This document shows positions 49,001 through 64,000 of a stretch of 64,000 nt of DNA, one piece after another. A program made the translations under genes and the position numbers. The DNA is from Vicinamibacteria bacterium (lineage in GTDB: Bacteria > Acidobacteriota > Vicinamibacteria > Vicinamibacterales > UBA8438): NCBI GenBank assembly GCA_022820675.1, contig JAJEFC010000346.1:3387-67386 (forward strand), written 5' to 3'. The first letter of the stretch is position 1; every line of letters begins with the position of its first letter. The notes beneath the pieces were generated by a model that was not told the DNA's origin, made no database searches, and saw only the letters and a list, made by a program, of their open reading frames with translations.

Positions 49001-49344
49001 GCGGGCAGGTTCGGCAGCGACGCGGGGTCGTGCGCGAGATGCCGCAGCGCCACCAGCGTGTGCGTCTTGCCGCCGCCGTAGGTCAGCTCGAGCTGCCGCA
49101 CCGCCTTGGTGTTGCGGCCCGCAAGGCGAAGCATGACGTCCCGCGCCAGCTCGCGCAGCGAGAAGGTTGGGTAGGTCAGCGCGAAGAAGCGCGCGGGGTC
49201 TTCGTAGATCGGCCGCGCTCCCCGCTGCATGATGACGTCGTGGAGGTCGGCGGCGAAGTCGGCCAGCGACAGCTCGCCGGTGCGCACGTCCTCGCGCAGC
49301 TTCACAACACGGTGCCAAGGGGTCCAGGGGAGCTTCTGGGACAT
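46024..49344 (-). CDS. DUF499 domain ATPase (COG1483-like), ATPase component of helicase-methylase-ATPase (Hma-like) system
   Basis: ATG at 49344 (MSQKLPWTPWHRVVKLREDVRTGELSLADFAADLHDV). Walker A-like GGGKTH and Walker B-like LVLIDEV are present. The N-terminal text is as I remember for DUF499 proteins. Confidence 0.85.
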   Translation of the reverse strand: MSQKLPWTPWHRVVKLREDVRTGELSLADFAADLHDVIMQRGARPIYEDPARFFALTYPTFSLRELARDVMLRLAGRNTKAVRQLELTYGGGKTHTLVALRHLAHDPASLPNLPAVEQFRSDVGASLPPARVAALAFDKLDVEKGMEVRGPAGELRWLKHPWSVLAFQIAGAAGIRALHAEGRDEERETAPAEPLLVDLLSRPQAEGLATLVLIDEVLMFARGKVAVDEAWRGRLTDFFQYLCQAVTKVDRCALVASLLASDIDKSDETGKAISAQIAEIFNRQKEEGVQPVQKEDVAEVLRRRFFTPASIADSDAFLPHVTTAVRNLAAVDDVVRKDRKSAEDRFARGYPFHPDLTDLFYVRWTQLDRFQRTRGILRTFAIALRDAESWDTSPLVGPNIFLPAPGRDGIAEAARELTGVATREATESRGNDWAAILEGELAKARAIQDEQSGLRGREIEQAVCTVFLASQPTGQKAQTRDLIGLVGATRPDRIELEQGLRRWTDLSWFLDENEFGSEPATDGGPPPLPKAWRLGNRPNLNQMHHDACTNRVTAEAVEVKLLAEIRATKSLTHGARASGVRVHMLPERPRDVEDDGEFHFAVLPPACVSNAGRPSRAARRFLDETTGPDRPRIRRNAVVLVAPSTDGLEVARTRVRDYLGWDDVQHQLRGQPQDPVREEMLATWTEDARRRIPEAIRQAWTIVVTVNPQNEVQAFRVTVGSDPLFETVKADRRARVQEAPINAEAMLPGGPYDLWRDDEPSRRVKDLASAFAENPRLPKMLRTQEILATIDRGVRDGLFVASLPRPDRSVKTWWRTPIDEAARSEPALELFLPAAATLSDLDPGVLAPGVLPELWAGDSITVAAVVDYFSGGRTVTVLREGYEEPMDIPACPANAVEAAVAAAVQQGSLWLLNGPASFQGEPLPAGVLTPAAALRAPLEPVPVQRLLKNAVPDAWKADETTVLALSIALANQEGNPLPWAVLRRAVEDAIASRWLETTPESGPWPCEVAAAGTVSLRPPTGFDPTSVSPAVSKTTAGYGSSAVLDPAALQDLVDALPEIVKAAAGLPLEFRLDVTLGASVKDIQSNTLESIDKLLRDVSADLALKR

Positions 49345-49357
49345 CTGCTGGTCTCGT

Positions 49358-49930
49358 TCAGTTCCGGCCAACTACGGCCTGTAGCCGTCGGGCGAGGTTG
49401 TCGAAGTCCTCGGGACACTTCCGCCGGATCGCGTCGATTCGGCCGGCCGCTTCCTCGCCCAGCGGCTTCCGGCCGCCGCCGGGTGCGCGGTGAACCCCGC
49501 GGTCTTGGGCGACTCTGTCGAAATAGCGTTCCTTCACGTGGACCTCCGCGCGAACGTCCCGCCAACGCCAGTCGTCGGGCAGCTCGAGGCCCGCGAGTAC
49601 CCACGTCTCCAGTTCCTCCCAAGCGTTCTCCGCCAACAAGACGCAGCCGTCGCCGAACTCCTTCTCCAAGGCTTGGAGTCTGTCCCGCCGGTGCTCTTCG
49701 CCGTCACGGTCGACGCAAAGGATGAACATACTCGTCATACCGCCGTGCCGCGTGACAACCTCCGACGTGCGGGATGACTTCAGGGCTTCGCCGACACCCC
49801 CGAGTACCGGGTCTTCGCATACCCGAACGCGGGCCGTCGGCCTGCCGATGGCCCGAAAGAGGGACTTGAACAGCGGTTTCAGGATGTACTTGTCCTTTCG
49901 GGAATCCTCCGGAATGACCAGAACATTCAC
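49358..49930 (-). CDS. small TOPRIM-like / DUF4276-like protein, partner of the upstream ABC-type ATPase
   Basis: The GTG start overlaps the ATPase stop (GTGA at 49927-49930). It has an N-terminal acidic strand (VLVIPEDSRKD) and a later ILCVDRDGEE (DxD-like), the layout of a TOPRIM/OLD-type nuclease domain. The family assignment is not certain. Confidence 0.5.
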   Translation of the reverse strand: MNVLVIPEDSRKDKYILKPLFKSLFRAIGRPTARVRVCEDPVLGGVGEALKSSRTSEVVTRHGGMTSMFILCVDRDGEEHRRDRLQALEKEFGDGCVLLAENAWEELETWVLAGLELPDDWRWRDVRAEVHVKERYFDRVAQDRGVHRAPGGGRKPLGEEAAGRIDAIRRKCPEDFDNLARRLQAVVGRN

Positions 49931-51216
49931 GACTGCTGATCTCCCCGGTCGTCTTCGGTGAAGGCGAGCGCCGTTTCCATCCAGCCCGACTCGTGCAGCC
50001 TCCCCAGTCCCTGGTCCTGCCGCAGCTCTCGAGCCTTGGGAAGATCAACGACCCGGCGGATCACCCCGTTGGCGGTGTCTTCGAGTCGGCAGGTCACGGA
50101 GGTGTGCTCGAACGTGTCGTCCTTCATCACGGTCAGGAGCGTCGGCGAATGCGTCGTTCCGACCACCTGCGTGCGGCCTCTCGTCGGTCCCTCGAACAGA
50201 TCCAGCAACAATCCGAGCCGGACAGGGTGAATGCCGTTGTCGATCTCCTCGAAGAAATACAGTCCGGCCGTGTTCTCAGCGAGCAACGCAGCCAGCATCG
50301 CCAGGAAACGCAACGTACCGTCCGAGACGCTGTACGCGGACAGCTTCCGCTGGTCGGACTCGCGAATCACGAGCTGGACCAGTCCGGTCACCGGGTCGAC
50401 GGGAAACTCGAAGTCGGTGACGTCCATGGGCGTGAGTTCGCGAACCCAGCCGATCAGGCTGTCGGCTCTTTCCTGGTTGGCGCAGATCTGCCGAAGCACG
50501 GTCGGCAGGTTCTCGCCAGTATCGCCCAGCACGGTCTGTCCGGGGAACGCCGGCCGTCGCATGCGGTCGGGTATCAGGTCGAGAAAACGCATGTTCGCGA
50601 AGACTTCGATCACCCTTCTTGCGTAGTCCTTGTGGGCACGCACCACGCGTTTGTGTTCCTCGATCTGCGTCAGAGCCGGCTGGTCCGGCCGCACAGCGAT
50701 CCGATCGCCGTACTTGCGCTGCGTGCCAGTTTTCCGCATTCGGAGCAGCAGGTGCGTGTCGTCATCCTGGTATCCGACAGGATCCGAGTAGGGAGGGTCG
50801 CTCGTGTAGATCGGCTCCGCGCCTGTCCAGGTCGAGAGCTCCTCACGCGTGACTCGGAAATTACCGGAGTCCGCCGCGCTTCGGGATATGTCGATGCGGT
50901 AATGCGCGGGTGTATTGCCGAGCTTCAGTCGAACCTCAAGGGCGAATCGATGTCCAGATTCGGTGTCGGCCAGGCGCCCGATCTCATTGGGGGCGCCGCG
51001 AACCGCCTGCCACTCGGTCTGACCGCCTGGTCCGTACTTGCCGCCGAGAATCTCCGCCAACGTGTAGCCGCGTCCGATGCCGTGCAAGAAGCGGAACGCG
51101 TCCCGGATATTGCTCTTGCCGCTGGCGTTCGTGCCCACGATCACGGTGAACGGCCCGACGCGGAGTGTTTCGTCGGCGAAGTTCTTGAAGTCGACGAGTC
51201 GAAGCGAGGTGATCAT
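49927..51216 (-). CDS. ABC/SMC-like AAA ATPase (AAA_15/AAA_21-type)
   Basis: In-frame ATG at 51216. MITSLRLVDFKNFADETLRVGPFTVIVGTNASGKSNIRDAF (Walker A), SDGTLRFLAMLAALL (signature-like) and LYFFEEIDNGIHP (Walker B) are present. Confidence 0.8.
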   Translation of the reverse strand: MITSLRLVDFKNFADETLRVGPFTVIVGTNASGKSNIRDAFRFLHGIGRGYTLAEILGGKYGPGGQTEWQAVRGAPNEIGRLADTESGHRFALEVRLKLGNTPAHYRIDISRSAADSGNFRVTREELSTWTGAEPIYTSDPPYSDPVGYQDDDTHLLLRMRKTGTQRKYGDRIAVRPDQPALTQIEEHKRVVRAHKDYARRVIEVFANMRFLDLIPDRMRRPAFPGQTVLGDTGENLPTVLRQICANQERADSLIGWVRELTPMDVTDFEFPVDPVTGLVQLVIRESDQRKLSAYSVSDGTLRFLAMLAALLAENTAGLYFFEEIDNGIHPVRLGLLLDLFEGPTRGRTQVVGTTHSPTLLTVMKDDTFEHTSVTCRLEDTANGVIRRVVDLPKARELRQDQGLGRLHESGWMETALAFTEDDRGDQQS

Positions 51217-51359
51217 GGCTTCGTTTCCCACCCTGACGGTCGTTCGGCGGGAATCGCCCCTCCAGGAACGTGTCCGAGGATGGCCGGGCGGTTCGCCGCG
51301 GGTGGGCCGCACAAGGCACCAACGAGCGCCGTGGAATCGGACAGCCGGTGGGTCATCGG

Positions 51360-51596
51360 TCAGTCGGCGCGGCGGTCGGGGTGACGTTGGCGCCGCACCC
51401 ACGCCGCGGGGTCGTCGTCCCACGCGTGGCCAGTATCAGGCAGGCGGCCGAGGGCGTCGTCGATGTCGTCCCAGCGCCGTTCGTGCTCGAGACCGCGGCG
51501 GATCAGCTCGGCGATGAACGCGCTTCGCCGCCGCGGCCCGGCGCGGCGGTCGATCTCGTGCACGAGTGCGTCGTCCAGTGCGATGTGCAGACGCAT
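51360..51596 (-). CDS. ribbon-helix-helix (CopG/VapB-like) protein
   Basis: ATG at 51596. MRLHIALDDALVHEIDRRAGPRRRSAFIAELIRRGL plus a Trp-containing tail (AWVRRQR) is the pattern of actinobacterial-type VapB/CopG antitoxins. No PIN partner is present. Confidence 0.6.
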   Translation of the reverse strand: MRLHIALDDALVHEIDRRAGPRRRSAFIAELIRRGLEHERRWDDIDDALGRLPDTGHAWDDDPAAWVRRQRHPDRRAD

Positions 51597-51643: not shown

Positions 51644-54600
51644 TCACGGTTCCTCTTCGAGCCGTTGCAGCTTCGGCTGGCGCGGGGGCGCCAGACCGAC
51701 GCGGGCGGCGACGTGGTTCGAGAGCGACTCCAGGACGGCGCGTTCGTCGGAACCGGCGTCGGCCAGCTCGATTAGCGCCTGCAAGAGACGGGCGAAGAGG
51801 GCGTGGCGCTTCAGGCCGCGGTCGTCGAGATAGTCGTTGACCCGCGCTTCTTCGCCGGCGCGCCACAGGTGCATCAGGCGGTGGGCCTGGTCGATCAGCG
51901 GCGGCGGGCGGCCGTCGGGTGCGGCGTGGCCGAGCGACCTGGCCGTCCTGCGGCTCCACGGCTTCAGCGCCACGCGGCTGCCGGCGCCGCCGGGGCCGTC
52001 GGTCGAGCCGGCGCTGTCGGTCGAGCCGGTGCTGTCGGTCGAGGCGGAGCCGTCCGGCGGGCCGGCGTCCTCGTCGAAGTCGGCGTCGTCGTGGCCGGCT
52101 TCGCCAGCGGACGGGCGCCTGCCGCGAGACAGGACGTCGTAGCGATCCGTCAGCTCGCGGTCGGACAGGTTGCAGGAGAGGGCGTAGAGAATGCAGGCGC
52201 CGGCGGGGGCGTCGCCCATGCCGAAGTCGTTGCGGTGCAGCAGGTAGTAGGTGGTTACGTCGTCGAGCCCGCTGGTCGCCTGGGTGTCGCCGTCGTGGGT
52301 CAGCACCCGGCCGACCACGAAGTCGACCACGAAGCGCCGCACCTCGCGGAGGAACTCCGACACCGCGAGTCGCTCGCCGGGGGCGTCCGCCTTCTTCACG
52401 ACGGGGTGCTTCGAGAACGCCTCGAGGGCGGGCCCGGTCGCCGCCCACACGAAGTCGGGGCCGCGGATGCCGGCGACCCAGAAGTCGCGGAGCTGCCGGG
52501 TGATGTTCTCGCGCATCTCGGCGAGCACCGCGGCGTCCCATCCCGCCCGCGCGGCCGGGCGCTTCCGGCAGACGATCCAGATCGACGAGGCGAGGGCCGC
52601 CGACTGCATGGCGCGGGTCCTGGCGAGCCGTTCCGTCTGGATCGTCCACGAGCCCACGACCACGAACCCGGCCCGGATGAGAGCGGAGACGAGCGTCTCC
52701 CACGCGTCCGGCGACTTGTTGGCGAAGACGATGACGAGCCGGCCCTCGTCGCGCAGCGCGGCGTGGAACCGCGAGAACGCGCGCGCCATGCCGTCCTCGT
52801 AGTTGCGCTTCGACGCCCCGCGGTCGCCGCCGAATCGGGCGGCGTCGTCGATGAGCTCGCCGTCGTTGGCCGCCGCGTTCCACTTCGGGCCGAGGGGCGC
52901 CTCGAAGGCGGCGTCGATCTCGGGCGACAGCCCCCAGAGCGCGCGCCGCAGCCAGACATGGAAGAAGTCCATCAGGTCGGAGTAGGGAATGGCGTCGTAG
53001 TAGGGCGGGTCGGTACAGATGAGGTCGAAGCCCGGGTCCGCGGCGCCGTGGGCCTGCGGCTCGGTCGCGGACCCCGGCGTGCCGGTGGAGCCAGCGGGGG
53101 ACAATCGCTGTTCAGTGCTGGTGGCCTGCGGCTCGGTCGCCGCTGCCGCACCCGCGGCCGCACGGATCGCCGCCAGCACACCCGCAGAGTCGTCGCGGAA
53201 TGTCCGCCGGCCGGGTTCGGCGGAGGCTTGGGGCTCGGCGGTGGGTCCAGGCGTCTTGTCGGAGGTGATTGCCGGCGGAGGTGCCCCGGGGGTGGCCGTG
53301 GGCTGCGGTTCGGCCGCGGACCGGCGCAGCACGGCGGGTGCAGGCGCAGCGGTCGTGGCGTCGAGCAGGTGTTCGCATACTTCAGCGGTCCATTCGACGG
53401 CCTGGATGAAGCCGCCGCTGGTATCGGCCAAGGGGCAGGACTCCGCGAAGTCCCACACCATCGGCAGTGCGAAGCGAGCGAACGTATGCCCAATCTTGTC
53501 GGCGTCGTATTGCCACGTGGCCAGCGTGCTCCCGCGGTCGGCCACGCGGCTGATCGTGGGCGTCAGCGTCGCGACCAGCGCTTCCCGCCACGCTTCCGGC
53601 CAGCCGGCCATCGTCTCGGGGAGGCGGCGCATCTCCTGGACAAGCGTGCCGAGGGCCAGGAGTTGGCGGTTCGTGAACAGCGTGCGCCACCTGTCGAAGC
53701 CGTAGCCGTCGACCGAGAACGCCCGCGACGCTCCGACTCCGGCCTTCGGCGTCGGCTCGTCCGGCACGCCGAACGGCGACTCCGCGTAGAGCGCCTCGAT
53801 CTCTGCCTCGTCCACCCGCGCTGCTTCCAGCTCCAGGGCCGTTGGCAGCCGATACTCCTTGCCGTGCGGGCCGTCGACCACGACCGCAGTCATGACCTCG
53901 CCCAGCCGCCCGGCGCGGCCGTCGAGGCGGAGGTCCTGCATGGTCATGATGGCCTGGCAGAGGGGGCACCGCACGCCGGACCGGCTCATCGTGCCGGCGC
54001 CGACCCGCCGATCGTGCTCGCGCCGGCGCGCGGGGTTGCCTTCCCCCCGGGGGACGTCACTCTCGACTCCGAAGACAACCCCCGTCTTGTCCGCGTTCGC
54101 CGCCATCGTCAGCCGCACGCGCTTGGCACCCTTCCTGGCGAGCCAGCGGGTCTTGAGTAGCGGGACCGTCGCGCGGCAGCCCTTGCAGCGCGCCGTGCGC
54201 GCCCAGAGATACGCGACGGCCGGCTTCGCCACCCATCGCGGATTCCGCCGGTCCTTCAGGTACACCGCGTCGAACGCCGCGTTCAGCGGACCGACGTCGG
54301 TGTCGCCGTTCGCGTCGGCGGCCAGCAGCGTCAGCGGCCGCGGCTCGAACGGCCGGCCGCCCGGCTTCAACGCCTGGAACGCCGCGTAGGTCGGATACCG
54401 TCGCGCAAGCCGTCGCCGCGCCTCGGCCAGCACCCGGCGTCCCCAAGCGCGGACCTGCCACGCGAGGTCCGCCTCCAGCTCCGGTCCTGTGCCGATCAGA
54501 CGCGGCTCGGTCTCGCGGTCGTCGCCGAGGCAGAGCTCGGCGAGTTCCCGCCTCAACGCCCGGCCCTTCACGCCCCGCGCCTTCAGGAGGGCGGTCATGA

Positions 54601-55198
54601 ACACCCGGTCCCGCAACGCGAACGCCGGCAACGGCCGCGCCTCGCCCGCGAGCCTCCGCGGATAGTCGAGCGTGCACTTCAGGATGAACCACGCGACCGG
54701 ATTGATGTCGACCGCCGTCACCGCGCAGCCCAGCCGCATCGCCTCCAGCGGAATCGCGCCCCCGCCCGCGAACGGATCGAGCACCCGCGGCGCGCGCCCG
54801 CCGAAGGCGTCGCGAACCCGCGCCCGGAACCACTCGACGTCCGGCCCGCCCTCCCGTTTCCAGTGGAGAATCCCGCCCTGCGTCTCCCGCTTCCGCCGCG
54901 CCACCGTCCGTCCGCCGACCCGCTCGTCCTCGACCGTCTCGACGACCTCGCCCGCCATCCGCCGGTAGACCGCCTGTCGCTCCCGCGCGCTCCCGGGGTC
55001 GGGCAGCAGCGTCGCGATCAGCGCCGCCCGGCTCGCCGCCAACGGCCGCCGCGCCGGCCAGATGTGCAGCGTCGAGATGTGCCCGTGGCGGACGTTCTTC
55101 TCGTGGACGGAGTCGAGGGACACCTGCTCCAGAGGAAAGGCGACCTCGATCAGGCGCTTGTGCGTCAACGCGTCTCTCCCGCCACGTGTTTCCGCCAC
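51644..55198 (-). CDS. DUF1156 domain DNA methyltransferase (COG1743-like, DPPY motif), methylase component of Hma-like system
   Basis: KRLIEVAFPLEQVSLDSVHEKNVRHGHISTLHIWPARRP (DUF1156), VLDPFAGGGAIPLEA (SAM motif I), Cys pairs CKGC/CPLC (Zn ribbon) and CTDPPYYD (motif IV) are present. An alternative TTG start at 55168 would overlap the upstream stop as TTGA. Confidence 0.9.
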   Translation of the reverse strand: MAETRGGRDALTHKRLIEVAFPLEQVSLDSVHEKNVRHGHISTLHIWPARRPLAASRAALIATLLPDPGSARERQAVYRRMAGEVVETVEDERVGGRTVARRKRETQGGILHWKREGGPDVEWFRARVRDAFGGRAPRVLDPFAGGGAIPLEAMRLGCAVTAVDINPVAWFILKCTLDYPRRLAGEARPLPAFALRDRVFMTALLKARGVKGRALRRELAELCLGDDRETEPRLIGTGPELEADLAWQVRAWGRRVLAEARRRLARRYPTYAAFQALKPGGRPFEPRPLTLLAADANGDTDVGPLNAAFDAVYLKDRRNPRWVAKPAVAYLWARTARCKGCRATVPLLKTRWLARKGAKRVRLTMAANADKTGVVFGVESDVPRGEGNPARRREHDRRVGAGTMSRSGVRCPLCQAIMTMQDLRLDGRAGRLGEVMTAVVVDGPHGKEYRLPTALELEAARVDEAEIEALYAESPFGVPDEPTPKAGVGASRAFSVDGYGFDRWRTLFTNRQLLALGTLVQEMRRLPETMAGWPEAWREALVATLTPTISRVADRGSTLATWQYDADKIGHTFARFALPMVWDFAESCPLADTSGGFIQAVEWTAEVCEHLLDATTAAPAPAVLRRSAAEPQPTATPGAPPPAITSDKTPGPTAEPQASAEPGRRTFRDDSAGVLAAIRAAAGAAAATEPQATSTEQRLSPAGSTGTPGSATEPQAHGAADPGFDLICTDPPYYDAIPYSDLMDFFHVWLRRALWGLSPEIDAAFEAPLGPKWNAAANDGELIDDAARFGGDRGASKRNYEDGMARAFSRFHAALRDEGRLVIVFANKSPDAWETLVSALIRAGFVVVGSWTIQTERLARTRAMQSAALASSIWIVCRKRPAARAGWDAAVLAEMRENITRQLRDFWVAGIRGPDFVWAATGPALEAFSKHPVVKKADAPGERLAVSEFLREVRRFVVDFVVGRVLTHDGDTQATSGLDDVTTYYLLHRNDFGMGDAPAGACILYALSCNLSDRELTDRYDVLSRGRRPSAGEAGHDDADFDEDAGPPDGSASTDSTGSTDSAGSTDGPGGAGSRVALKPWSRRTARSLGHAAPDGRPPPLIDQAHRLMHLWRAGEEARVNDYLDDRGLKRHALFARLLQALIELADAGSDERAVLESLSNHVAARVGLAPPRQPKLQRLEEEP
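51998..52051. repeat. 18-nt in-frame tandem repeat (3 units) inside the methyltransferase gene
   Basis: gtcggtcgagccggcgct / gtcggtcgagccggtgct / gtcggtcgaggcggagcc, encoding STDSTGSTDSAGSTD on the minus strand. Confidence 0.9.
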
Positions 55199-56223
55199 AG
55201 GTAGCTGGCGAAGGAGGCGCAGGCGCCCAGCATGAACACCGCCTCGTCCCGGCCTACTTGAGCATCTGTCCGGTCGAGCAACGGATGACGAATACCCTGT
55301 TCGTCCGACGCGTAGCCGTAGAGCCTGATGAACGCTTCCCTGAGCGCGGGATGCAGCGCGCGATGTCGCTCAAGTGACTTCAATGCCGGCCCCAAATTGC
55401 TGGATGCCTCTGGATCGAGTTTCCGGGCAACAGACTCGACAGCGTGAATGCTCTCCCGAACGGCTCCGGCCCAGTCACCGACGTGGATGTTCCCGGACGC
55501 GTCGCGCAGGTGTGCCGCGCTGGCGTCCAGGCCAGCCTCCCGAAGCTCGCCGAGGGACTCGACAACCGCGGTTCCCTCTTCGGGCGTCACGGCCGGAATG
55601 ATGGTCGGCGGTGGTGCCACATCGATTGTGTAGGCCAATCGGCATTCGGCGAACGTCTTCTTCATCTGCTTGACGAATCCGCGCGGACACCTGGGATGGC
55701 GCAAGACGAACTGGATGAGGTCGAATACCCTGTTGAAGGGCCATTTCTCAATGCGCTGGCGAAGACTGTACCGAACTCTCGGGAATCGGGGATCCCATTT
55801 GTCCAGCGAACCACGGTCCAGGTGAACGTGCTTGGCATGCAGAATCTCATCCCAGGGTGCGGCAATCCACGACTCGGCAAACATGTACGGATCCCCCACC
55901 GTCTTGGTGGACCGACTGATGTGTTCGAAGAACAGGTTCCATATCTGCGTCCGCGCATCTCGCGACAGCTCTCCCAGTTGCAGCGGCCCGGGAACATCTT
56001 CGTAACCCTGGGCCTGCGAGAAACTGAGTTCATGTGCGTCGCGACGAGTCGGCGTTCCACGGAGACCACTGGGTCCGCCGGGTGGTTCCAGTCCATCGGC
56101 TGTGGGGGCCGCGATCCGTGCTCGCTGACGCGCGCGCCAAGCGGCCCGGCGCATGGCCGCCTCGGCGCCCACCATGTCTGGATCACGGTCCGCGTGCGTC
56201 GGATTCCTGTGTTCGGTGCTCAT
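55165..56223 (-). CDS. AbiJ-like protein: AbiJ-NTD4-like N-domain plus C-terminal HEPN domain
   Basis: FSQAQGYEDVPGPLQLGELSRDARTQIWNLFFEHI resembles the AbiJ N-terminal domain 4 pattern. The C-terminus AVRESIHAVESVARKL ... FIRLYGYASDEQGIRH ... MLGACASFASYLW resembles the AbiJ-type HEPN with its R-x-H region. The ATG at 56223 overlaps the upstream stop (ATGA). Confidence 0.65.
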   Translation of the reverse strand: MSTEHRNPTHADRDPDMVGAEAAMRRAAWRARQRARIAAPTADGLEPPGGPSGLRGTPTRRDAHELSFSQAQGYEDVPGPLQLGELSRDARTQIWNLFFEHISRSTKTVGDPYMFAESWIAAPWDEILHAKHVHLDRGSLDKWDPRFPRVRYSLRQRIEKWPFNRVFDLIQFVLRHPRCPRGFVKQMKKTFAECRLAYTIDVAPPPTIIPAVTPEEGTAVVESLGELREAGLDASAAHLRDASGNIHVGDWAGAVRESIHAVESVARKLDPEASSNLGPALKSLERHRALHPALREAFIRLYGYASDEQGIRHPLLDRTDAQVGRDEAVFMLGACASFASYLWRKHVAGETR

Positions 56224-56750
56224 GTTCGCCTGCCTTCCCCGACCAGCATCGGAACCTCTCCTGAATTGTCGTACACCGCCCACACGTCCACGAGGGCGCG
56301 GTAGACCTGCTCGAAGTTGCGCCAGCCGGACAGGAACCGCCGTCGGATCACCGGTTCGGGCACGTCGTGGCCGCCTTCCGCCACCCGTTGGGCCACCCGA
56401 GCGATTGCCGCCTCGGGCGACGGCAGCCGCAGGAAGAACAGCTTGACCCGGTAGCCGTGCTCGCGCCAGCGAGGAATCAGGCGGGTGTAGCCGCGTCCGC
56501 TCAACGTCGTCTCGAAGGCGAAGCTGGCGCCCCCCCGTGCGTGCTCCTGAATCTGCCGGGCCATCAGCCGGCCAGCCTGCACGGCCACCGAACCCGCCCC
56601 GAACGGGCTCAACCCGGCCGCAATGAGGTCACCGTTGACGAAGACGGGGCAGCCGGCTTCGGTCGGCAGGAACTCCCGGGCGAACGTCGTCTTCCCGGCT
56701 CCGTTCGGTCCGGCGACTATGAGAACCCGCTTGCCGGCATTCGCAGTCAT
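56220..56750 (-). CDS. zeta-toxin-like P-loop kinase/ATPase (COG4185-like)
   Basis: In-frame ATG at 56750. Walker A is VAGPNGAGKTTFAREF. FETTLSG, VKLFFLRL and GGHDVPEPVIRRRF ... NF ... VYDNSG follow the COG4185/zeta family pattern. Confidence 0.7.
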   Translation of the reverse strand: MTANAGKRVLIVAGPNGAGKTTFAREFLPTEAGCPVFVNGDLIAAGLSPFGAGSVAVQAGRLMARQIQEHARGGASFAFETTLSGRGYTRLIPRWREHGYRVKLFFLRLPSPEAAIARVAQRVAEGGHDVPEPVIRRRFLSGWRNFEQVYRALVDVWAVYDNSGEVPMLVGEGRRT

Positions 56751-56781
56751 GTCGTTCCGGTACACAAGGCGCTGCCGCGTT

Positions 56782-57639
56782 TCAGAATGGAACTTCGTCA
56801 GCAACAGTGTCAATTGATATTTCGTAGTCAAACATGCCGTTGTCCGTAACAAGCCTGATCATCGATCTGCCGGTTACTTGATAGCTATCTTGAAGCGCGT
56901 CGCCGCGTGACTTGAAGGCCACGATACGTCGAGCCTCGAATCGCAATTGAGCCCAACCCGTACGTTGAAGACGCTTGACCGGACAGGTCAGGAAATAGCG
57001 CCATTTGTATTGGGGCACGTCCGACTCTGTGCTGGGGCTATCCCTTTCGTCTTGACGGATTCTCCATTTGTGTCCAGTATAAAAGTAAACGCTCTCGATT
57101 TCTGCAGATGGCAGGTCGGAGTCGTTGTGGAGATCGATCCTAAAAGTTATTTTTGCGGTGGCAGACCAATCCGTCCTTTCCAAATCACCACGGATCTCCT
57201 GTACTTGCACACGAATCCGGCTGCGGCGAATGTTCTCTATTTCGTTGCGAGCCCATGCAAGATTCTCTATCATTTGCTCGCGGAGGAATTGGATTGAACC
57301 CTCGTAAACAATATGCCGCCTGTCCTTCAAGTCGAATGGGATGTCAGCGACATCTCTGGTGAGCAATAAGCAAAGCTTGTCCTTGGCATGCGCGTACCCC
57401 ACTTCGTAGAAGACATTGGGGTTCCTGCCAGACATGTCGGCGATGACGATGTCCGCGGCTTCGATTTGCCGGTAGATTCGGTCAAGTATACCTCCCGCGA
57501 ATAGTTGCTCGTCGACGCGTTCTGCGCGGATACCGAGATCGTCGGCAGGGTCCTTGATGCCCAGTCGGTAGATGTCGTCGAAATCCGAACTGAAAGGCAT
57601 GAGCACGAACGCGAAGGTCGTTTCTGTTGGGTTATGCAT
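56782..57639 (-). CDS. nucleoside 2-deoxyribosyltransferase-like / TIR-like N-domain protein with uncharacterised beta-rich C-domain
   Basis: FAFVLMPFSSDFDDIYRLGI ... ILDRIYRQIEAADIVIADMSGRNPNVFYEVGYAHAKDKLCLLL ... IPFDL is the pattern of the deoxyribosyltransferase/TIR-like Rossmannoid effectors. I do not recognise the C-terminal ~150 aa. The gene is markedly lower in GC than its neighbours. Confidence 0.6.
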   Translation of the reverse strand: MHNPTETTFAFVLMPFSSDFDDIYRLGIKDPADDLGIRAERVDEQLFAGGILDRIYRQIEAADIVIADMSGRNPNVFYEVGYAHAKDKLCLLLTRDVADIPFDLKDRRHIVYEGSIQFLREQMIENLAWARNEIENIRRSRIRVQVQEIRGDLERTDWSATAKITFRIDLHNDSDLPSAEIESVYFYTGHKWRIRQDERDSPSTESDVPQYKWRYFLTCPVKRLQRTGWAQLRFEARRIVAFKSRGDALQDSYQVTGRSMIRLVTDNGMFDYEISIDTVADEVPF

Positions 57640-57783
57640 CTGTTCCGTCCGGTGGTACAGCCACTACATGCCCGGCGATCACGAAGATTCTCTTGCCGAC
57701 TGCGTTGGTCAGAAACGGTTCCGATCGGCGGCCTCGTGGCTGTTCCAGGTCGGCGGACTGGTAGCCCTTGACGTGCACGCGCT

Positions 57784-59703
57784 TCAGCACGCGACGTCTC
57801 CAGAGTTCACGCCCATCTCCTGCAGAAACCGTGACGGCTGTTTGGCCCAGCCGAAGTACGAGTCGGCATGGGTCAGGGTCAGGCTGGACTGAACGCGAGT
57901 GATTGCCACGAAGCAGTTGCGACGTTCTTCTTCGAGGGCGGCAGGCCCGCCCTGCAGTGCGTGAAACGAAGGCAACTGCTCTTCCGCGAGCCCGATCAGG
58001 TAGACGTGACGGAACTCCTTGCCCTTGGCGAGATGAATCGTCAGACACTGCACGTCGCCGGCGGTCGGAGGCGAGGTCTTCTGGCGGAGGTCGAGTTGCT
58101 GGAGGAACTGGCTCAGCGGCGGGTCAGCGCCCAAGTGCTGTCGGATCTCCGCCGTCAGAGATCTCCAGATCCCACTCTCGTCGGATTCCTCGTCGGAATC
58201 GGTAGCGACCGCTCGCGGTGTGCGATCACGCCAATCGAAGGTGTTCTTGATGAAGTCGCGGTACCTTCCTCGGTCAAGGAGGTCGTTCCGCAGGGTATGC
58301 AGCAAGGGCCGTGCGGCGGGGGTTGCACATGAGGATGCAACGTTCAAGAACCCAGCCAGAAGAGGGTCTCCCAGCAGAACGCTCTCGGCCTCCGCTTGCG
58401 TGGGCTGCACGGGGGCCGCGGTGAGCTCGTAGAAGGCCCCGCACAAGAGAGCGAGTTGCTCGGTGTCGCCGGGGCGACGGATGAGGCGTAGCGACGAGTG
58501 GAGAAAACGCAGGAGCGGCGATTCGAACTCGGCCTTTCGCTTGACCACGTACGACGGCAGTCCGGCTCGCGACAGCGCCGCGGCAACGGCGCGGACGAGC
58601 TTGGTGCTTCTGGCGAGGACCGTGCAATCTCCGGGCTCGATGGAGCTCGTCTTGATGTCTTCGGCGACCCAGGACAATTCGGTTGCGCAGTCGGTGAATC
58701 GGCGAGCTCGGACCACCGACGAGCGTGAGGGGGGGGGCGTGGTGGTGGCGGACACCAGGGGCCTCTTGTCGGCGGCCCGGTCAGCGTTGTGGGCGATGAG
58801 GTTGTTCGCCAAGCGAACGACCTCGGGCGGGCATCGAAAGCTCTCGGGAAGCTGGACGATGGCCATGTCGTAGTCGGTCCGGAGTCGGCGGAGACGCTCG
58901 GGGCTGGCGCCGTTCCACTGGTAGATGGTCTGGTCATCGTCGGCGACCACGAAGAGGTTGCTGTTCCGGTCAGGGTAGAGCGCCCGCAGGAGAAGATCCT
59001 GGACCTTGTTGGTGTCCTGGTACTCGTCCACGCAGGCGAACGGGTACACGATGCGGTAATCGCGGGCGATGCGGGGGCGTTCGCGGAAGAGGCGGAGACA
59101 GCACACGAGGAGCGCGCCGAAGTCGAGATGATTGCCTTCGATCAGACGCTGGATGTACGCCCCGAAGATGGGACGAATCCACTCCTTGCCGGGGGCGGCG
59201 AACGGCAGCGGCGCGTCGTGACCCTCGCGACCGTCGTGGCCGTCCCGAAGCAGGCGGTCGACCATGGGCATCAGACCCTTGCCGGTCGCGCCCGCCGGCG
59301 TGCCGGGGTGACCGGCATCCTGTATCGCGTCGTTCAGGACCAGATGCCGATCCGCGTCCTGGTTGAGGATCGCGAAGTCGGGGCGCAGGCCGAGGTGGCT
59401 GCCGTGCTGGCGCAGCACGTCGGCGGCGAAGCCGTGGAACGTCGTCAGGCGAGCTCGGCGCATGCGGGGGCCGAGCAGTTGGGCGACCCGGCCCCTCATC
59501 TCCTCGGCCGCCTTGGTCGTGAACGTGAGCGCGAGGACTCGGAACCGCTTGTCGGGGGTTTCCTGGATGAGCCGCGCGACGCGCGTCGCGAGCACGCGCG
59601 TCTTGCCTGCCCCCGGCCCGGCGAGCACCAGCATCGGGCCGTCGTTCCAGTCGACGGTCCGCCGCTGGTTGACGTTCAAGGAGTCCAGATCGAGCATGGT
59701 CAC
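57784..59703 (-). CDS. gajB: UvrD/PcrA-type superfamily 1 helicase, Gabija GajB
   Basis: VLAGPGAGKTRVL (Walker A), LTFTTKAAEEM, VDEYQDTN and IHLAKGKEF are present. It lies directly downstream of the OLD-type ATPase-TOPRIM gene with overlapping stop and start (GTGA at 59700-59703). Confidence 0.85.
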   Translation of the reverse strand: MTMLDLDSLNVNQRRTVDWNDGPMLVLAGPGAGKTRVLATRVARLIQETPDKRFRVLALTFTTKAAEEMRGRVAQLLGPRMRRARLTTFHGFAADVLRQHGSHLGLRPDFAILNQDADRHLVLNDAIQDAGHPGTPAGATGKGLMPMVDRLLRDGHDGREGHDAPLPFAAPGKEWIRPIFGAYIQRLIEGNHLDFGALLVCCLRLFRERPRIARDYRIVYPFACVDEYQDTNKVQDLLLRALYPDRNSNLFVVADDDQTIYQWNGASPERLRRLRTDYDMAIVQLPESFRCPPEVVRLANNLIAHNADRAADKRPLVSATTTPPPSRSSVVRARRFTDCATELSWVAEDIKTSSIEPGDCTVLARSTKLVRAVAAALSRAGLPSYVVKRKAEFESPLLRFLHSSLRLIRRPGDTEQLALLCGAFYELTAAPVQPTQAEAESVLLGDPLLAGFLNVASSCATPAARPLLHTLRNDLLDRGRYRDFIKNTFDWRDRTPRAVATDSDEESDESGIWRSLTAEIRQHLGADPPLSQFLQQLDLRQKTSPPTAGDVQCLTIHLAKGKEFRHVYLIGLAEEQLPSFHALQGGPAALEEERRNCFVAITRVQSSLTLTHADSYFGWAKQPSRFLQEMGVNSGDVAC

Positions 59704-61394
59704 GCTCCGGCGAGTGCCGAGGCCTTGTTCAGGATACTCGACAGCGCAGCCGGCACCGGGGTCGCTCCGGTCGTCATCCGGGCGGCGGCTTCGGCGGCGA
59801 TCTCCGGCTTGCTGTAGCTCTTCGGTAGAGCGTTCAGGACTTCGGCCCAGTAGGCCGCGGTGTATCTCGCCGATGTCGGTGGCGGCTTCTGTCGGGACAT
59901 GCGCGACTCGTAGAGATCCCCGAATCCGCCTTCACAGAGCATCTGCTCGACGTTCGCGTAAGGCATGGTCAGTCGATCCGCCGGGGGTGCGCCGGCGAAC
60001 TGGTTCTTCACGCGTTGCTCGTACTTGCGGCGCCCGCTGTCGTTGTCGAGCACGCAGTACCAGACGATGCCGAGGCTGTTGGCGACCTTGGCCAACATGC
60101 CCAGGTCGGTCTGGCTGAACTCGACGCAACGCACGCCCGCGCGCTCGATGTCGAGATCGAGCGCTTCCGCGGCACCGGTCAACAGCGTCGTCTCGGTTTC
60201 ACCCTCGACGAGCAGCCAGCACTTGGCGAACAACAGCTCGCCGCGGGTGCGGCGGACATGCGAGTCGAATTTCCGTGCTTCTTCCGGCGTCAGCGTCCCC
60301 GGTTCTATCCGATGCACGTGAATGCCACCGCCGGCATGCGCGAACCGGCGCATGGCCGACGACGGCACGCTGGCGAGGAGGTCGCCGCTATGGGTCGACA
60401 GCAGCTTCTGGCCCGGCAGATCGCTGACGATGCCCATCAGCGAGCGGATAGCTGACGGGTGCAGGTGCGCTTCCGGCTCTTCGAGCGCCGTGATCGGTGC
60501 CGCATCAGGATCCAGGTCGGAGAGCCTGCTGCGGAGGAAAGCCCCGAACAGCAGAAGCACGGCCAGACTCTGAGTCCCCTCGCCCTGGAACTCGACGGGG
60601 ATTCGGGCACCCGAACGCGATGCGAGGCTCACCTGGGCTCGGGACAGCAACGAGAAGAGCTTGGTTGGCAGCGCGTCGATGGACACGGTCTCGTTGGCGC
60701 CGAACTCGATTACCTTGCGGGCGTCCTCGAGGCGCGTGCGGACGTCGAGTAGTGGTTGATGCGCCGTGATGAGTTGCTCGTTCAACCTCGCGAGCGCCGT
60801 CTTCAAGTCCTCTCTGGCATCCTCGGGAAGTCCACTCTCGGCGAGGAACGTGCGCCAGAAACGGCCCTTGGCCGCGAAGTGCCTGGATGCGTCCCGAAGG
60901 GCTGAGAGGTAGAACGGCGGCGCCAACCTCTGGAGCGTATTGAGTTGACTCGGCGCCTTGCCGGCCGGCAGCGGATTGCCGTCGGCGTCGAGGAAATCCC
61001 AGTCGGTCACGAACTCGCCGGTGTCCTGGTCGAAGGACGAGGCGACGCGGAACGTGATCCGACGCTGGTCGTCGGCGTCGAGGGCGAACAGATCCGCCAC
61101 GGCCTGGACGACCTCGTCGCTCCACGGCTCCGACTCCGCTTCGACGAACGACAGCTCGATTTCAATGGGGGCGGCGTCCACGGGCGTCGAGGCATCGTCG
61201 GGAAGGTGATAGTCGTACTCGTCGAACGGACCCCGGCCACGGCCACGCAGTCGTTCGAGGCAGATGCGGACGGCCTCGAGAAAAGCGGTCTTGCCCGAGT
61301 TGTTCTCCCCGATCAGAACCGTAGTTTCGTCGAGGTCGACGGTGAGGTCCCTGATGCAGCGGAAGTTGCGGATCTTGACGGTGGTCAGCCTCAT
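59700..61394 (-). CDS. gajA: OLD-family ATPase-TOPRIM nuclease, Gabija GajA
   Basis: MRLTTVKIRNFRCIRDLTVDLDETTVLIGENNSGKTAFLEA (ABC ATPase N-terminus), LEEPEAHLHP (Walker B/D-loop) and the C-terminal TOPRIM LLVEGETE ... VLDNDSG are present. The 564-aa size fits GajA. Confidence 0.85.
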   Translation of the reverse strand: MRLTTVKIRNFRCIRDLTVDLDETTVLIGENNSGKTAFLEAVRICLERLRGRGRGPFDEYDYHLPDDASTPVDAAPIEIELSFVEAESEPWSDEVVQAVADLFALDADDQRRITFRVASSFDQDTGEFVTDWDFLDADGNPLPAGKAPSQLNTLQRLAPPFYLSALRDASRHFAAKGRFWRTFLAESGLPEDAREDLKTALARLNEQLITAHQPLLDVRTRLEDARKVIEFGANETVSIDALPTKLFSLLSRAQVSLASRSGARIPVEFQGEGTQSLAVLLLFGAFLRSRLSDLDPDAAPITALEEPEAHLHPSAIRSLMGIVSDLPGQKLLSTHSGDLLASVPSSAMRRFAHAGGGIHVHRIEPGTLTPEEARKFDSHVRRTRGELLFAKCWLLVEGETETTLLTGAAEALDLDIERAGVRCVEFSQTDLGMLAKVANSLGIVWYCVLDNDSGRRKYEQRVKNQFAGAPPADRLTMPYANVEQMLCEGGFGDLYESRMSRQKPPPTSARYTAAYWAEVLNALPKSYSKPEIAAEAAARMTTGATPVPAALSSILNKASALAGA

Positions 61395-61562: not shown

Positions 61563-64000
61563 CTATTGTGCACTTCCTGGACTCTCCTCCGCCGCCGCGT
61601 GCACCGACGACGCCGGGATGGAGTGGGCCGACAGCTCCCGGGTCCTCACGAGCAGCTTCCCGAACGGGTCGCGGACCCGCGCGAGCCACGGCCGGGGCGT
61701 GGCGCAGTCGTAGACGGCGTAGAGCCAGTAGCCGTCGCGGAGGTTACACGCCTTGGCCCATTCGTTGTCTGACAGCTCGACGTCGCCGGCGCGGGCCCGG
61801 CCCTTGACCTCGATGGCGCGGCGGCGGCCGGCCGGGGTGACGGACAGCAGGTCGAAGCCCGGCCAGTCTCCCAACCCGGCACGGCGCGCGAGATCGGGAC
61901 GCGACACGTCGTGGACGGTGGCGCCGGACGCCTCTTCGTGCGCCTGCGCGACCCGCATGGCGATTTCCTCGACCCGGGCGTCGTGGCGCCGCCGCTCCTG
62001 CGCGTCGGCCGTCGGGAGGACAAGGGCGTGGGCGACGATCTGCGAGTCTCCTGCGGCGATGAGGCTCGGCTCCATCTGCACCCTGCGCAGGCGATGGTCC
62101 CTGTCGGCGGCGAGACGGCGCTGCTCGTCCTTGACCCTGGCGAGCTCGGCGCTTGCCCGAGCGTCGCCCGCGCGGGCCTTGCGGCCGACGTGCTGGCGCC
62201 TCGCAATCAACTCGGCGGTCCTGTGGTCGCAGCCGCGGGCCGTCCAATCGAGCCGTTCGGGTACCGACTGCTCGATACGTGCGCGGTGCTCGTCGACCAA
62301 GCGGGCGAGGGCATCGTTCTCGATCCAGTCGCGGGCGGCGTCGGTCAGCCGCCGCGCCGTGCGGGCGAGCGGCACGCTGCCCGGCGCGACGTCGGGAGCG
62401 CCGCGCAGCAGGAGCAGGTGTTCCAGCGGACAGGGCTCGACGGCGCCGTCTTCGTCCTGGCGGAGTCCGATCAGTCGGCTCTCGACGATCTCGGAACGAG
62501 GCTCTTCCCGCGCGGGGGCGCGGCCCGCGCCATGGTCGGAGCCGTGGCCGGCGCCGTGAGCCGCCGTGGCCGGCGGCTTGCGGACCACGGTCACCCGGGC
62601 GAGGTGGAAGAGATACGGCGCGGTCGCGTGCGGGTCGACGAAGAAGGCGCCGCGCCGCGCCTCGTCCTCGTGCCTCGACAGCAGTGTGGCGCAGAAGCGG
62701 TCGAACACCGGCTCGCCGGGGTGCAGCCAGATGACGTCGGCTCGGTTCGCGGGGCGGTAGACCGTGAACCGGCCGTGGGCACGGGCCGGATGGAGCTCCA
62801 TGGCGGCGAGCACCGGATCGAGGCCGCGCCGGCGCGCCTGGCCGAGCTCGAAGACACCGTCCGGGTCGCCGTCGACGCGAAGATCGATCAGTGGCGCCGC
62901 ACCGGTCACGAACCGCCGGACGTAGCCGGGCAGCAGTCGGCGGTACCGTTCCCGATCGATGGCGGCCTGCAACGCGGGCAGGCTGCTCCTGACGTCGCCA
63001 CCTCCGAACAACGTCCGTTCCCGTTCGTGGAGCGCGCGCACCTGCTCGGCCGTCAGCAGGCCGCCGATGCCGTCGACGGCGGACCTGGCGCCCTCCTCCG
63101 TCGCCGCCTGCTCCAGGTAGTCCTTGAGCGAGACGTTCTCGAACAGGCGGCCCACGACGTCGAAGACCTTGTCCGACCGGAGCTCCGCGCGGATAGCCTC
63201 CAGCTTGTCGAGCAGCGTCTTCAGCACCCGCCCCTCGCGCGTCTCGCCCGCCACGAGGTTGACGATGACGACGGGGTCGTGCCGCTGCCCGTAGCGGTGG
63301 ATGCGGCCCATGCGCTGTTCGAGCCGCGCCGGGTTCCAGGGCACGTCGTAGTTCACCATCAGCCAGCAGAACTGGAGGTTGATGCCCTCGCCCGCGGCGT
63401 CGGTCGCGACCAGGTAGCTGGCCCCGCCCTCGTCGAGCGGGCGCCGGAACAGGTCGACCTGCGCCTCGCGCTCGCGGTAGTCGAGGCCGCCGTGGATCGA
63501 CGCCACCTGTCCGGTGAAGCCCAGCCCCTCGAGGCGTCGGACCAGGAACTCGGCGGTGTCGCGGTGCTCGGTGAAGACGATGAACTTCTCCCTGGCGAAG
63601 GCGGAGCCGCGCAGCACTTCGCGGAGCTTCTCGAACTTGGAGTCCTCGCCCTCGTCGGCGAGGCGCCCCGCCTGGGCGAGAAGCGCCTCGACCTCGCGAC
63701 GCTCTTCCCGGAGCTGCGCCAGGGCCGGCGCGACGATGCCGCCCAGCGCGCGGTCCTCGAACGCCTCGTGACCCTCGCCTCCACCCGCCTCGTCGGCGTC
63801 CTCGTCCGCCGTCCGTGTCTCGAAGAAGTCCGGAGTCGAGGCCAGACGATGCTGGCCGCGCTCCAGCTCGTCCGCCCGCCCGGCGCGCACCAGGTCGATC
63901 GCCTCGTCGAGCCGACCGAGCCGACGCTCGAACGATCGCATCAGCGCATACGTCGAGCTCGCCTGCCGGCGCTGGAAGACGCTCATCGCGAGCCGTGCGG
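61563..64000 (-). CDS. SNF2-family helicase (C-terminal helicase lobe) with long linker and C-terminal DUF3883-like nuclease-fold domain; 5' end outside window; helicase component of Hma-like system
   Basis: Helicase C-lobe motifs are present: FIVFTEHRDT, ATDAAGEGINLQ and NPARLEQRMGRIHRYGQ. The C-terminal GFDLLSV ... IEVKGRA ... ELSDNEWAKA ... YWLYAVYD is as I remember for DUF3883. The ORF is still open at 64000. Confidence 0.85.
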   Translation of the reverse strand, partial: ARLAMSVFQRRQASSTYALMRSFERRLGRLDEAIDLVRAGRADELERGQHRLASTPDFFETRTADEDADEAGGGEGHEAFEDRALGGIVAPALAQLREERREVEALLAQAGRLADEGEDSKFEKLREVLRGSAFAREKFIVFTEHRDTAEFLVRRLEGLGFTGQVASIHGGLDYREREAQVDLFRRPLDEGGASYLVATDAAGEGINLQFCWLMVNYDVPWNPARLEQRMGRIHRYGQRHDPVVIVNLVAGETREGRVLKTLLDKLEAIRAELRSDKVFDVVGRLFENVSLKDYLEQAATEEGARSAVDGIGGLLTAEQVRALHERERTLFGGGDVRSSLPALQAAIDRERYRRLLPGYVRRFVTGAAPLIDLRVDGDPDGVFELGQARRRGLDPVLAAMELHPARAHGRFTVYRPANRADVIWLHPGEPVFDRFCATLLSRHEDEARRGAFFVDPHATAPYLFHLARVTVVRKPPATAAHGAGHGSDHGAGRAPAREEPRSEIVESRLIGLRQDEDGAVEPCPLEHLLLLRGAPDVAPGSVPLARTARRLTDAARDWIENDALARLVDEHRARIEQSVPERLDWTARGCDHRTAELIARRQHVGRKARAGDARASAELARVKDEQRRLAADRDHRLRRVQMEPSLIAAGDSQIVAHALVLPTADAQERRRHDARVEEIAMRVAQAHEEASGATVHDVSRPDLARRAGLGDWPGFDLLSVTPAGRRRAIEVKGRARAGDVELSDNEWAKACNLRDGYWLYAVYDCATPRPWLARVRDPFGKLLVRTRELSAHSIPASSVHAAAEESPGSAQ

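Follow-up and report, generated by a model that had tools for sequence, protein, structure and literature searches.

What does a gene for a small kinase resembling the zeta toxins do directly upstream of, and overlapping, a gene for an AbiJ-like HEPN protein? The question is raised by a stretch of 64,000 nucleotides (nt) from a Vicinamibacteria bacterium (assembly GCA_022820675.1, contig JAJEFC010000346.1, positions 3,387 to 67,386; the window below means this whole stretch), in which the stop codon of the kinase gene and the start codon of the HEPN gene share the tetranucleotide ATGA. An initial annotation, made from the sequence alone, delimited the two open reading frames (ORFs) and contrasted the pair with zeta toxins, which normally pair with small antitoxins. 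Both ORFs are found on the minus strand with the coordinates and motifs it quoted, and its suggestion that one protein gates the other is plausible. Here we describe how the small partner of the kinase is present after all, in fused form, as residues 1–37 of the HEPN protein. The locus is best explained as a composite of two modules, each of which is also found alone, joined by gene fusion. In this reading the kinase would belong to a toxin-antitoxin-like module of the zeta type, and fusion of its antitoxin-like partner to a HEPN effector of abortive infection would tether two effectors to each other; in our judgement it is about evenly balanced between true and false.

The small partner of the kinase and its fused form

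Where homologues of the kinase occur without a HEPN gene, the next gene overlaps the kinase stop codon by 4 nt and encodes a protein of ∼56–80 amino acid residues (aa), consisting of an N-terminal tail, a basic helix (RDPDxxGAEAAMxRAAxRARxRA) and a beta-hairpin (VxVWKDGKVV type). The sample of these loci comes from plasmid records and contig look-ups, with at least 7 loci confirmed in a kinase-centred metagenome scan. In Synechocystis pSYSG, the kinase is 62% identical to that of the window and the small partner reads MTNQQGNVNARNREEDPDILGSEKALRRAAQRARERAKQAGIGVIILKDGEIVEELPDS; small partners are also found in Crocosphaera and Legionella plasmids and in metagenome loci with kinases 33–56% identical. 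Four sampled kinase homologues are closer still (70–79% identical): two have a free partner (RDPDFVGAE...AVFKDGKVVWEKADGT; ...RDPDFVGAEIAMHRAAQRARRRAIETVGAVAVFKDGKVVWEKADGT...), and the other two are followed by a protein combining the partner helix, a partial NTD4 and the HEPN part, and by a 68-aa remnant with the helix only.

A profile of the small partners together with the N-terminal extensions of HEPN proteins has 1,890 protein matches, and among the matches listed 120 of 120 are free-standing proteins of 57–105 aa, annotated as 'hypothetical' and lacking any Pfam domain. In a random sample of small partners, three of three lie behind a Zeta_toxin/AAA_33 gene with a 4-nt overlap. Pfam, NCBIfam and PADLOC hold no family for either the small partner or the HEPN extension. 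The kinase family itself comprises 453 clusters (at 50% identity) at E <= 1e-30 and 5,147 at E <= 1e-10 in an exhaustive search, and a word-indexed search with the kinase returned more than 8,000 matches. The minimal zeta-like kinase with its downstream partner is an overlooked family; a review of orphan PezT/zeta toxins searched for antitoxins upstream only, and would therefore have missed a partner encoded downstream.

Partner and kinase may also occur as a single chain. Among the best 150 cluster representatives (50% identity), 34 have a partner match after the kinase domain, compared with none of 1500 shuffled sequences. These single-chain representatives fall among P0364–P0510, and P0369 carries two tandem copies of the partner.

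In the window, the counterpart of the partner forms the beginning of the HEPN protein. A hidden Markov model (HMM) built solely from 116 free-standing small partners matches residues 1–37 (E = 4.3e-12, 42.8 bits). The same model matches 81 of 91 long-form HEPN proteins, one of 29 short-form proteins (with a miscalled start) and none of 2400 shuffled sequences, and a pairwise BLASTP comparison of the HEPN extension with a free partner gives E = 2e-5. Residues 13–37 read RDPDMVGAEAAMRRAAWRARQRARI, and in locus L010 the linker that follows keeps a remnant of the partner hairpin (GIAVWEKSRDKDGT). Judged by these comparisons, residues 1–37 of the window HEPN protein are homologous to the helix of the free partner. 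There is no start codon near HEPN residues 60–66 (L65 is encoded by CTC), so the HEPN core can be made only in fusion with the extension.

Conservation of the pair was surveyed in 80 HEPN-related loci, in a scan with one genome per species. In 26 of them the gene immediately upstream of HEPN is a kinase homologue (21 intact, 5 degraded), and in most of these kinase-linked loci the stop/start overlap has the geometry seen in the window (typically, the kinase high-scoring segment pair ends at 5998 and the HEPN ATG is at 6001). The intact kinases are 66–89% identical to that of the window, and the hosts include Vicinamibacterales, Binatia, Alpha- and Gammaproteobacteria and unclassified metagenome-assembled genomes (MAGs), so the pairing is not peculiar to this genome. 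Nor is it fixed, as the initial annotation had supposed: 54 of the 80 loci have no kinase, and the kinase family is far larger than its HEPN-coupled subset. In the kinase-free loci the similarity begins only near residue 62 of the query, mostly in a short form of ∼285 aa that stands alone, often directly upstream of the Hma methyltransferase gene HmaB. A total of 1,955 homologues of the HEPN protein were detectable; those of ∼350 aa, with 100% query coverage, support the ATG start assigned in the window.

The extension follows the kinase closely. With a regular-expression motif for the extension, 21 loci have both motif and kinase, 52 neither, two the motif without a kinase, and five a kinase without the motif. 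Of the five, L018 has only a kinase remnant, and the four with an intact kinase show variant motifs on inspection (RDPHLAGAE, RDPVFIGAE, SDPDFASAE and GHPDLAGAE); the extension is therefore found in 21 of 21 HEPN loci with an intact kinase.

These counts bear on the view that the kinase is an enzymatic regulator of a HEPN toxin, similar to a type VII antitoxin, which docks on the helix and phosphorylates the HEPN protein or its tail, turning it off or on, with the HEPN domain as the sole effector. HEPN toxins neutralised by an enzyme exist, since MntA AMPylates HepT. For another HEPN dyad, Anantharaman et al. (2013, PMC3710099) proposed phosphorylation by a ParA-like ATPase. The kinase gene precedes the HEPN gene, a common order for antitoxins, and the kinase is very strongly conserved, with at least 70% identity across phyla. 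However, a kinase is missing beside most of the HEPN homologues sampled, and the kinase with its small partner is far commoner without HEPN than with it, so control of HEPN cannot be its primary role. Derivatives that have lost HEPN and retain kinase and helix are the opposite of what an antitoxin kinase predicts, and we consider this regulatory role unlikely.

Such derivatives are numerous. The helix is kept beside an intact kinase in loci where NTD4 is deleted (L075, L077, L087–L094) or partly deleted (L116), and likewise where the HEPN part is gone entirely, leaving a 68-aa remnant (L081–L086, L113). Where it is the kinase that is lost or degraded, the extension persists or decays (L003, L008, L012, L014, L036). 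Asymmetric decay of this kind would be expected of an antitoxin, with an active kinase always requiring the helix.

The in-frame deletions of NTD4 that keep the helix and the HEPN-like domain recur, and a 221-aa protein of this kind is present in eight contigs from several samples (L087–L094). Such a HEPN protein, tethered to the kinase but lacking the sensor, may itself represent a functional variant.

The unfused parts are found as neighbours in the same Hma slot: in L030 a short HEPN gene comes after a free partner, without a kinase, and L066 has a short HEPN gene, an AAA_22 gene, and then the kinase with a free partner. These loci, the separate occurrence of both modules and the repeated deletion of HEPN/NTD4 parts while the helix stays speak for a reading without functional coupling, in which two modules of one Hma slot were joined by deletion and spread horizontally, the extension serving as antitoxin of the kinase only and the HEPN protein being independent or a passenger. 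A neighbour-joining tree of the HEPN core (rough, without support values, and made with a motif filter that left out 35 loci) gives a rough indication in the same direction, grouping the majority of kinase-linked forms into a single large clade in which the kinase link was lost several times. Against this, the fusion is intact at 51–73% HEPN identity and at the kinase identities given above, in several phyla and many contexts, an argument for purifying selection acting on the composite as a whole. The extension would be linked to the kinase in either case, the two readings differing solely on co-regulation of the HEPN output, and a lack of functional coupling seems to us rather unlikely.

Folds and motifs of the two proteins

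The assignment of the kinase as a zeta-like P-loop protein is confirmed by matches above the Pfam cut-offs to Zeta_toxin (PF06414, 45.9 bits against a cut-off of 22.3, E 5.9e-12, profile positions 16–191 of 199) and to AAA_33 (40.1 bits against a cut-off of 27, E 5.5e-10). The motifs GPNGAGKTT, GGHDVPEPVIRRRF and YDNSG are present, and homologues of 174–176 aa beginning with MTxTADKR support the ATG start. In 22 kinase homologues the Walker A motif GPNGAGKT (K20), D41, E80-TTLSG, R118/R122, EGGH128 and R136-R138 are invariant, and these columns hold alike in homologues paired with HEPN, with a free partner and with remnants. D41, a conserved Asp ∼20 residues past the P-loop Lys, is probably equivalent to D67 of zeta.

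The AlphaFold model of the kinase (predicted local distance difference test score, pLDDT, 86.8) finds its best matches among PDB folds in PezT (2p5t, E = 8e-8), AvrRxo1 (4z8q) and zeta (3q8x/1gvn). These matches, with E = 1e-7 to 1e-6, cover about half of the targets, with target-normalised template modelling (TM) scores of 0.4–0.54. The next fold is the polynucleotide kinase of Clostridium thermocellum (4gp7, 4jst, 4mde), for which the whole target is covered (TM 0.68–0.71, E ∼1e-6), and the model also matches Pnkp1. Sequence searches of the PDB gave nothing useful for either the kinase or the HEPN protein, with only a weak match of the kinase to Pnkp1, and PADLOC-DB v2.0.0 gave no kinase match beyond the P-loop.

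HEPN RNases leave 5'-OH ends, and the kinase might accordingly be a polynucleotide kinase acting on the 5'-OH products of its HEPN neighbour, in the manner of Grc3/Las1, feeding decay that depends on a 5'-phosphate or blocking repair, with the helix as a tether. The full-length superposition on the C. thermocellum enzyme and the Pnkp1 matches point this way, and at 176 aa the protein is nearer in size to a bare polynucleotide kinase domain than to a zeta toxin. On the other side stand the Zeta_toxin match above its curated cut-off and the ranking of PezT, AvrRxo1 and zeta as top folds. The T4 and C. thermocellum polynucleotide kinases have an Arg 3 residues after the catalytic Asp, and the window kinase lacks it (D41-L-I-A). 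Moreover, the kinase is mostly found with a 60–70-aa partner alone and no nuclease, and we regard this role in RNA processing as quite improbable.

In the HEPN protein, the extension is followed by a low-complexity linker, an AbiJ_NTD4 domain and a HEPN-like helical C-domain. The linker varies in length and sequence among homologues, with inserts of up to ∼45 aa. AlphaFold predicts a helix at residues 15–38 and a disordered linker up to residue 84, with NTD4 and the helical C-domain folded confidently. The motifs FSQAQGYEDVP, IWNLFFEHI, RESIHAVESVARKL and LYGYASDEQGIRH are all present. AbiJ_NTD4 is presumed to be a sensor or regulatory domain, and a role as sensor and auto-inhibitor has been proposed for it (Anantharaman et al. 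2013, PMC3710099).

The C-domain matches none of the Pfam HEPN models. Its top four PDB folds are all HEPN proteins (1ufb, 2q00, 1o3u, 2hsb), with TM 0.56–0.63 and probability up to 0.96, but with E = 0.6–1.3. Invariant residues are R256-x3-H260, E263-x3-R267 and an R312-H313 dyad. The C-domain alignment contains no conserved R...H pair with the 4–6 spacer residues of the canonical Rx4-6H motif; R/H residues that could be catalytic are present at other spacing, and the E-x3-R fits the second of the motifs that Anantharaman et al. (PMC3710099) describe for HEPN domains. In calling the protein an AbiJ-type HEPN protein, the initial annotation was right about the N-domain, which matches AbiJ_NTD4 at 37 bits, and less secure about the rest, for which the HEPN likeness is weak, the Rx4-6H spacing is lacking and no PADLOC AbiJ model matches.

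Among the models of PADLOC-DB v2.0.0, only those of PDC-S32 are matched by the HEPN protein at E <= 0.01 (E = 2.3e-46, residues 65–346 against profile positions 6–281 of 285). PDC-S32, defined as a single-gene system, belongs to a set of 145 untested candidates (10.1101/2024.01.29.577857). Its stand-alone short forms fit a single-gene effector of the abortive infection (Abi) type embedded in modification systems. The model covers this short form only, whereas the window protein has in addition a 66-aa N-terminus and a translationally coupled kinase upstream, and the annotation of PDC-S32 should distinguish a single-gene from a kinase-coupled form. The initial annotation did not recognise the pair as a described system, and in the limited set of literature searched and in PADLOC v2.0.0 there is indeed no description of the pair, of the downstream partner or of the fusion; the HEPN half alone corresponds to PDC-S32.

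A possible mechanism and its relation to known systems

In the preferred reading of a fused composite, the first module would be the minimal zeta-type kinase with its downstream small partner, in an order and with a 4-nt overlap like those of a toxin-first toxin-antitoxin pair, and the second would be the single-gene abortive-infection-type protein with AbiJ_NTD4 and HEPN-like domains (PDC-S32). Both modules would first have been embedded in the same slot and then fused, with the tail and helix of the partner becoming HEPN residues 1–38 and the partner hairpin being lost at the fusion, a disordered linker taking its place. Zeta has its nucleotide site blocked by the N-terminal helix of epsilon, and this precedent hints at what the partner helix may do here. 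We infer that the helix would bind the kinase and keep it inactive, so that the HEPN protein would be the antitoxin of the kinase and both effectors would sit in one complex. Both activities would be freed by a phage cue received via NTD4, or when the labile tail and linker are lost or cleaved. The kinase would then phosphorylate a metabolite of the UDP (uridine diphosphate)-sugar or NAD (nicotinamide adenine dinucleotide) type and the HEPN domain would cleave RNA, resulting in growth arrest and abortive infection, with the pair acting as a back-up layer within Hma.

Several points weigh against this reading. Because the partner is encoded downstream and is unrelated to epsilon/PezA, its description as an antitoxin draws on gene order and decay patterns, and because the fused form lacks the hairpin of the free partner, binding may need more than the helix. 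The kinase, at only 176 aa, lacks the C-terminal part of zeta/PezT, and since it superposes over its full length on a polynucleotide kinase, a metabolite-kinase toxin is not the sole option. The assignment of the C-domain as HEPN is weak. The profile with which the 116 partners for the HMM were originally gathered also contained extension sequences. Some of the single-chain kinase-partner proteins could be due to 1-nt errors of assembly where the genes overlap at ATGA; these proteins are only supportive, because the evidence comes from metagenome-derived cluster representatives. The only isolate protein checked as a single-chain candidate, a 246-aa protein from Phaeobacter, was rejected, having an unrelated C-terminal tail.

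A bolder version would make the locus a two-warhead Abi module with mutual gating, in which the antitoxin of the kinase is the tail of the HEPN RNase and one cue sensed by AbiJ_NTD4 frees both, with an abundant, unnamed toxin-antitoxin-like family behind it that habitually occupies the PrrC-type slot of restriction-modification and Hma loci. This is a tentative proposal, which we think doubtful. If the fused composite is what it appears to be, it is a worked example of how a defence module can be assembled, by joining an antitoxin with another effector in one protein, and the association of kinase and HEPN protein has a concrete basis in a 38-residue helix.

The epsilon/zeta, PezA/PezT and AvrRxo1-ORF1:ORF2 systems resemble the kinase module in their Pfam family (Zeta_toxin), the P-loop, an Asp at the catalytic-base position and the best PDB folds, and they too are two-gene modules with a small protein partner. 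In contrast to epsilon/zeta and PezA/PezT, with toxins of ∼250–290 aa, the kinase is much shorter, and its partner is encoded downstream, bears no detectable relation to epsilon/PezA and is fused in the window to a second effector. No epsilon- or PezA-type antitoxin gene is found upstream in the window, where the next gene is TIR-like and has no homologue in the 80 related loci. Lactococcal AbiJ (Anantharaman et al. 2013) shares AbiJ_NTD4 with the HEPN protein; the PADLOC AbiJ models are unmatched, so the likeness is via NTD4 only, and no mechanism is known for AbiJ itself.

HepT-MntA (type VII) and the dyad of a ParA-like ATPase with a MAE_18760 HEPN protein have the same arrangement of an upstream enzyme using nucleoside triphosphates and a downstream HEPN protein. 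They differ in the enzyme folds (a nucleotidyltransferase and a SIMIBI-class ATPase, instead of a zeta-like kinase), and in the window the link is a fused partner peptide, with each half more often found without the other. The eukaryotic Las1-Grc3 complex likewise couples a HEPN nuclease physically to a P-loop kinase, Grc3 being of the Clp1 family. The likeness is in concept and general kinase fold only, with no sequence relationship to either protein.

In its position, the pair between HmaA and HmaB, like the free module between hsdS and hsdR, resembles PrrC in EcoprrI and the Hma-embedded candidates HEC-01 to HEC-09, of which HEC-08, an embedded HEPN effector, has been shown to defend (10.1101/2024.01.29.577857). 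None of HEC-01 to HEC-09 has a zeta-like kinase or AbiJ_NTD4, and, unlike them, the pair type of the window also occurs outside recognisable defence systems.

Genomic settings and the Hma host locus

The Hma system of the window is complete, with HmaA, HmaB and HmaC all on the minus strand, as is every gene of the region, and the kinase/HEPN pair is embedded between HmaA and HmaB (Table 1). The arrangement conforms to the 'embedding' that Payne et al. describe (bioRxiv 10.1101/2024.01.29.577857). HmaB lies 3' of the HEPN gene in only ∼25–29 of the 80 related loci, which marks the pair as embedded in Hma and not a core part of it. Among the 21 intact pairs HmaB is next in nine and not in 12, and outside Hma the neighbourhoods vary, with housekeeping genes among them, so that the pair moves as a cassette of its own. 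In L001, the closest locus, from a Vicinamibacterales MAG, the order is HmaA-GajA-GajB-kinase-HEPN-HmaB-PDC-M07A.

Table 1. Positions of genes and protein regions in the window, with supporting matches
Feature	Position	Strand	Details
Zeta-like P-loop kinase gene	56220-56750	minus	ATG start, 176 aa
HEPN gene (AbiJ_NTD4 + HEPN-like C-domain)	55165-56223	minus	ATG start, 352 aa
ATGA overlap, kinase stop/HEPN start	56220-56223	minus	plus strand reads 'tcat'; 4 nt shared
N-terminal extension of HEPN protein, residues 1-38 (MSTEHRNPTHADRDPDMVGAEAAMRRAAWRARQRARIA)	56110-56223	minus	homologous, by profile match, to tail + helix of free small partner
Low-complexity variable linker, residues 39-66 (APTADGLEPPGGPSGLRGTPTRRDAHEL)	56026-56109	minus	pLDDT < 50 over residues 39-84
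AbiJ_NTD4 domain, residues 67-201	55621-56025	minus	PF18863, 37 bits (cut-off 34); modelled confidently as alpha+beta
HEPN-like helical C-domain, residues 214-349	55177-55584	minus	invariant R/H columns; weak PDB fold matches
HmaA, SNF2-type helicase with NOV_C/DUF3883 tail	61563-63986	minus	PADLOC HmaA 2.5e-80; Pfam Helicase_C, NOV_C
HmaB, DUF1156 DNA methyltransferase	51644-55198	minus	PADLOC HmaB 1.4e-105; Pfam DUF1156
HmaC ATPase	46024-49371	minus	PADLOC HmaC 5.4e-71
GajA (Gabija)	59700-61394	minus	PADLOC 1e-196
GajB (Gabija)	57784-59703	minus	PADLOC 6e-222; 4-nt overlap with GajA
TIR-like gene	56782-57639	minus	285 aa; Pfam 3.8e-6 (under cut-off); PADLOC TIR effector 7e-10
ABC ATPase, PADLOC PDC-M07A	49927-51423	minus	9e-62; second embedding site, between HmaB and HmaC
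190-aa gene	49358-49930	minus	overlaps PDC-M07A ABC ATPase; no PADLOC match

The free kinase + partner module occurs inside Type I restriction-modification operons (L102, L109, L112). In Nitrosococcus watsonii (L112, CP002086, 203623-208808) the order is HsdM-HsdS-kinase-partner-HsdR, the module taking the same slot, between hsdS and hsdR, as PrrC in EcoprrI (10.1101/2024.01.29.577857). In Synechocystis pSYSG (L102), it adjoins HsdS, a nucleotidyltransferase and a DUF4433/macro-domain pair. In L114 (3343-5227), an AAA_15/AAA_21 ATPase gene and then a DUF4276 gene, a two-gene module like PARIS/OLD, lie directly downstream of the free kinase + partner; this is another kinase module within a defence cluster.

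Between the kinase gene and GajB lies a TIR-like gene, whose product combines a TIR-like/nucleoside 2-deoxyribosyltransferase-like N-domain with an uncharacterised C-terminal half of ∼170 aa. A three-gene operon including this gene was considered and rejected, as it has no homologue in 80 of 80 related loci and a low GC content (0.50–0.58, compared with 0.62–0.75 around it). In the otherwise syntenic L001 there is no TIR-like match, and the gap between GajB and the kinase is too small for the gene. It looks like a recent insertion. A scan of the minus strand for promoters and terminators (54900-58000) found no site, which is weak evidence and compatible with co-transcription.

A complete Gabija system (57784-61394) also lies inside Hma, between HmaA and HmaB, and is found likewise in L001, L017 and L062. 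At the second embedding site, the candidate system PDC-M07A may have the 190-aa gene as its partner gene.

The match of HmaA covers PADLOC profile positions 375–1130 of 1176, with the ORF starting at 63986; its true N-terminus is probably past the window end, because the profile match begins at position 375. For the methyltransferase HmaB, a possible TTG start had been placed in a TTGA overlapping the HEPN stop codon. The motif exists (55165-55168), but is the less likely start; GTG 55198, with a 34-nt overlap with the HEPN 3' end, is better supported, because an equivalent start is conserved in 22 of 29 related loci (ATG in L014, L033 and L063). HmaB also contains long low-complexity inserts rich in Ala, Pro and Thr at residues ∼620–700 and ∼1030–1090 (e.g. 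PTATPGAPPPAITSDKTPGPTAEPQASAEPG, STDSTGSTDSAGSTDGPGGAGS), which break the PADLOC HmaB match into three stretches.

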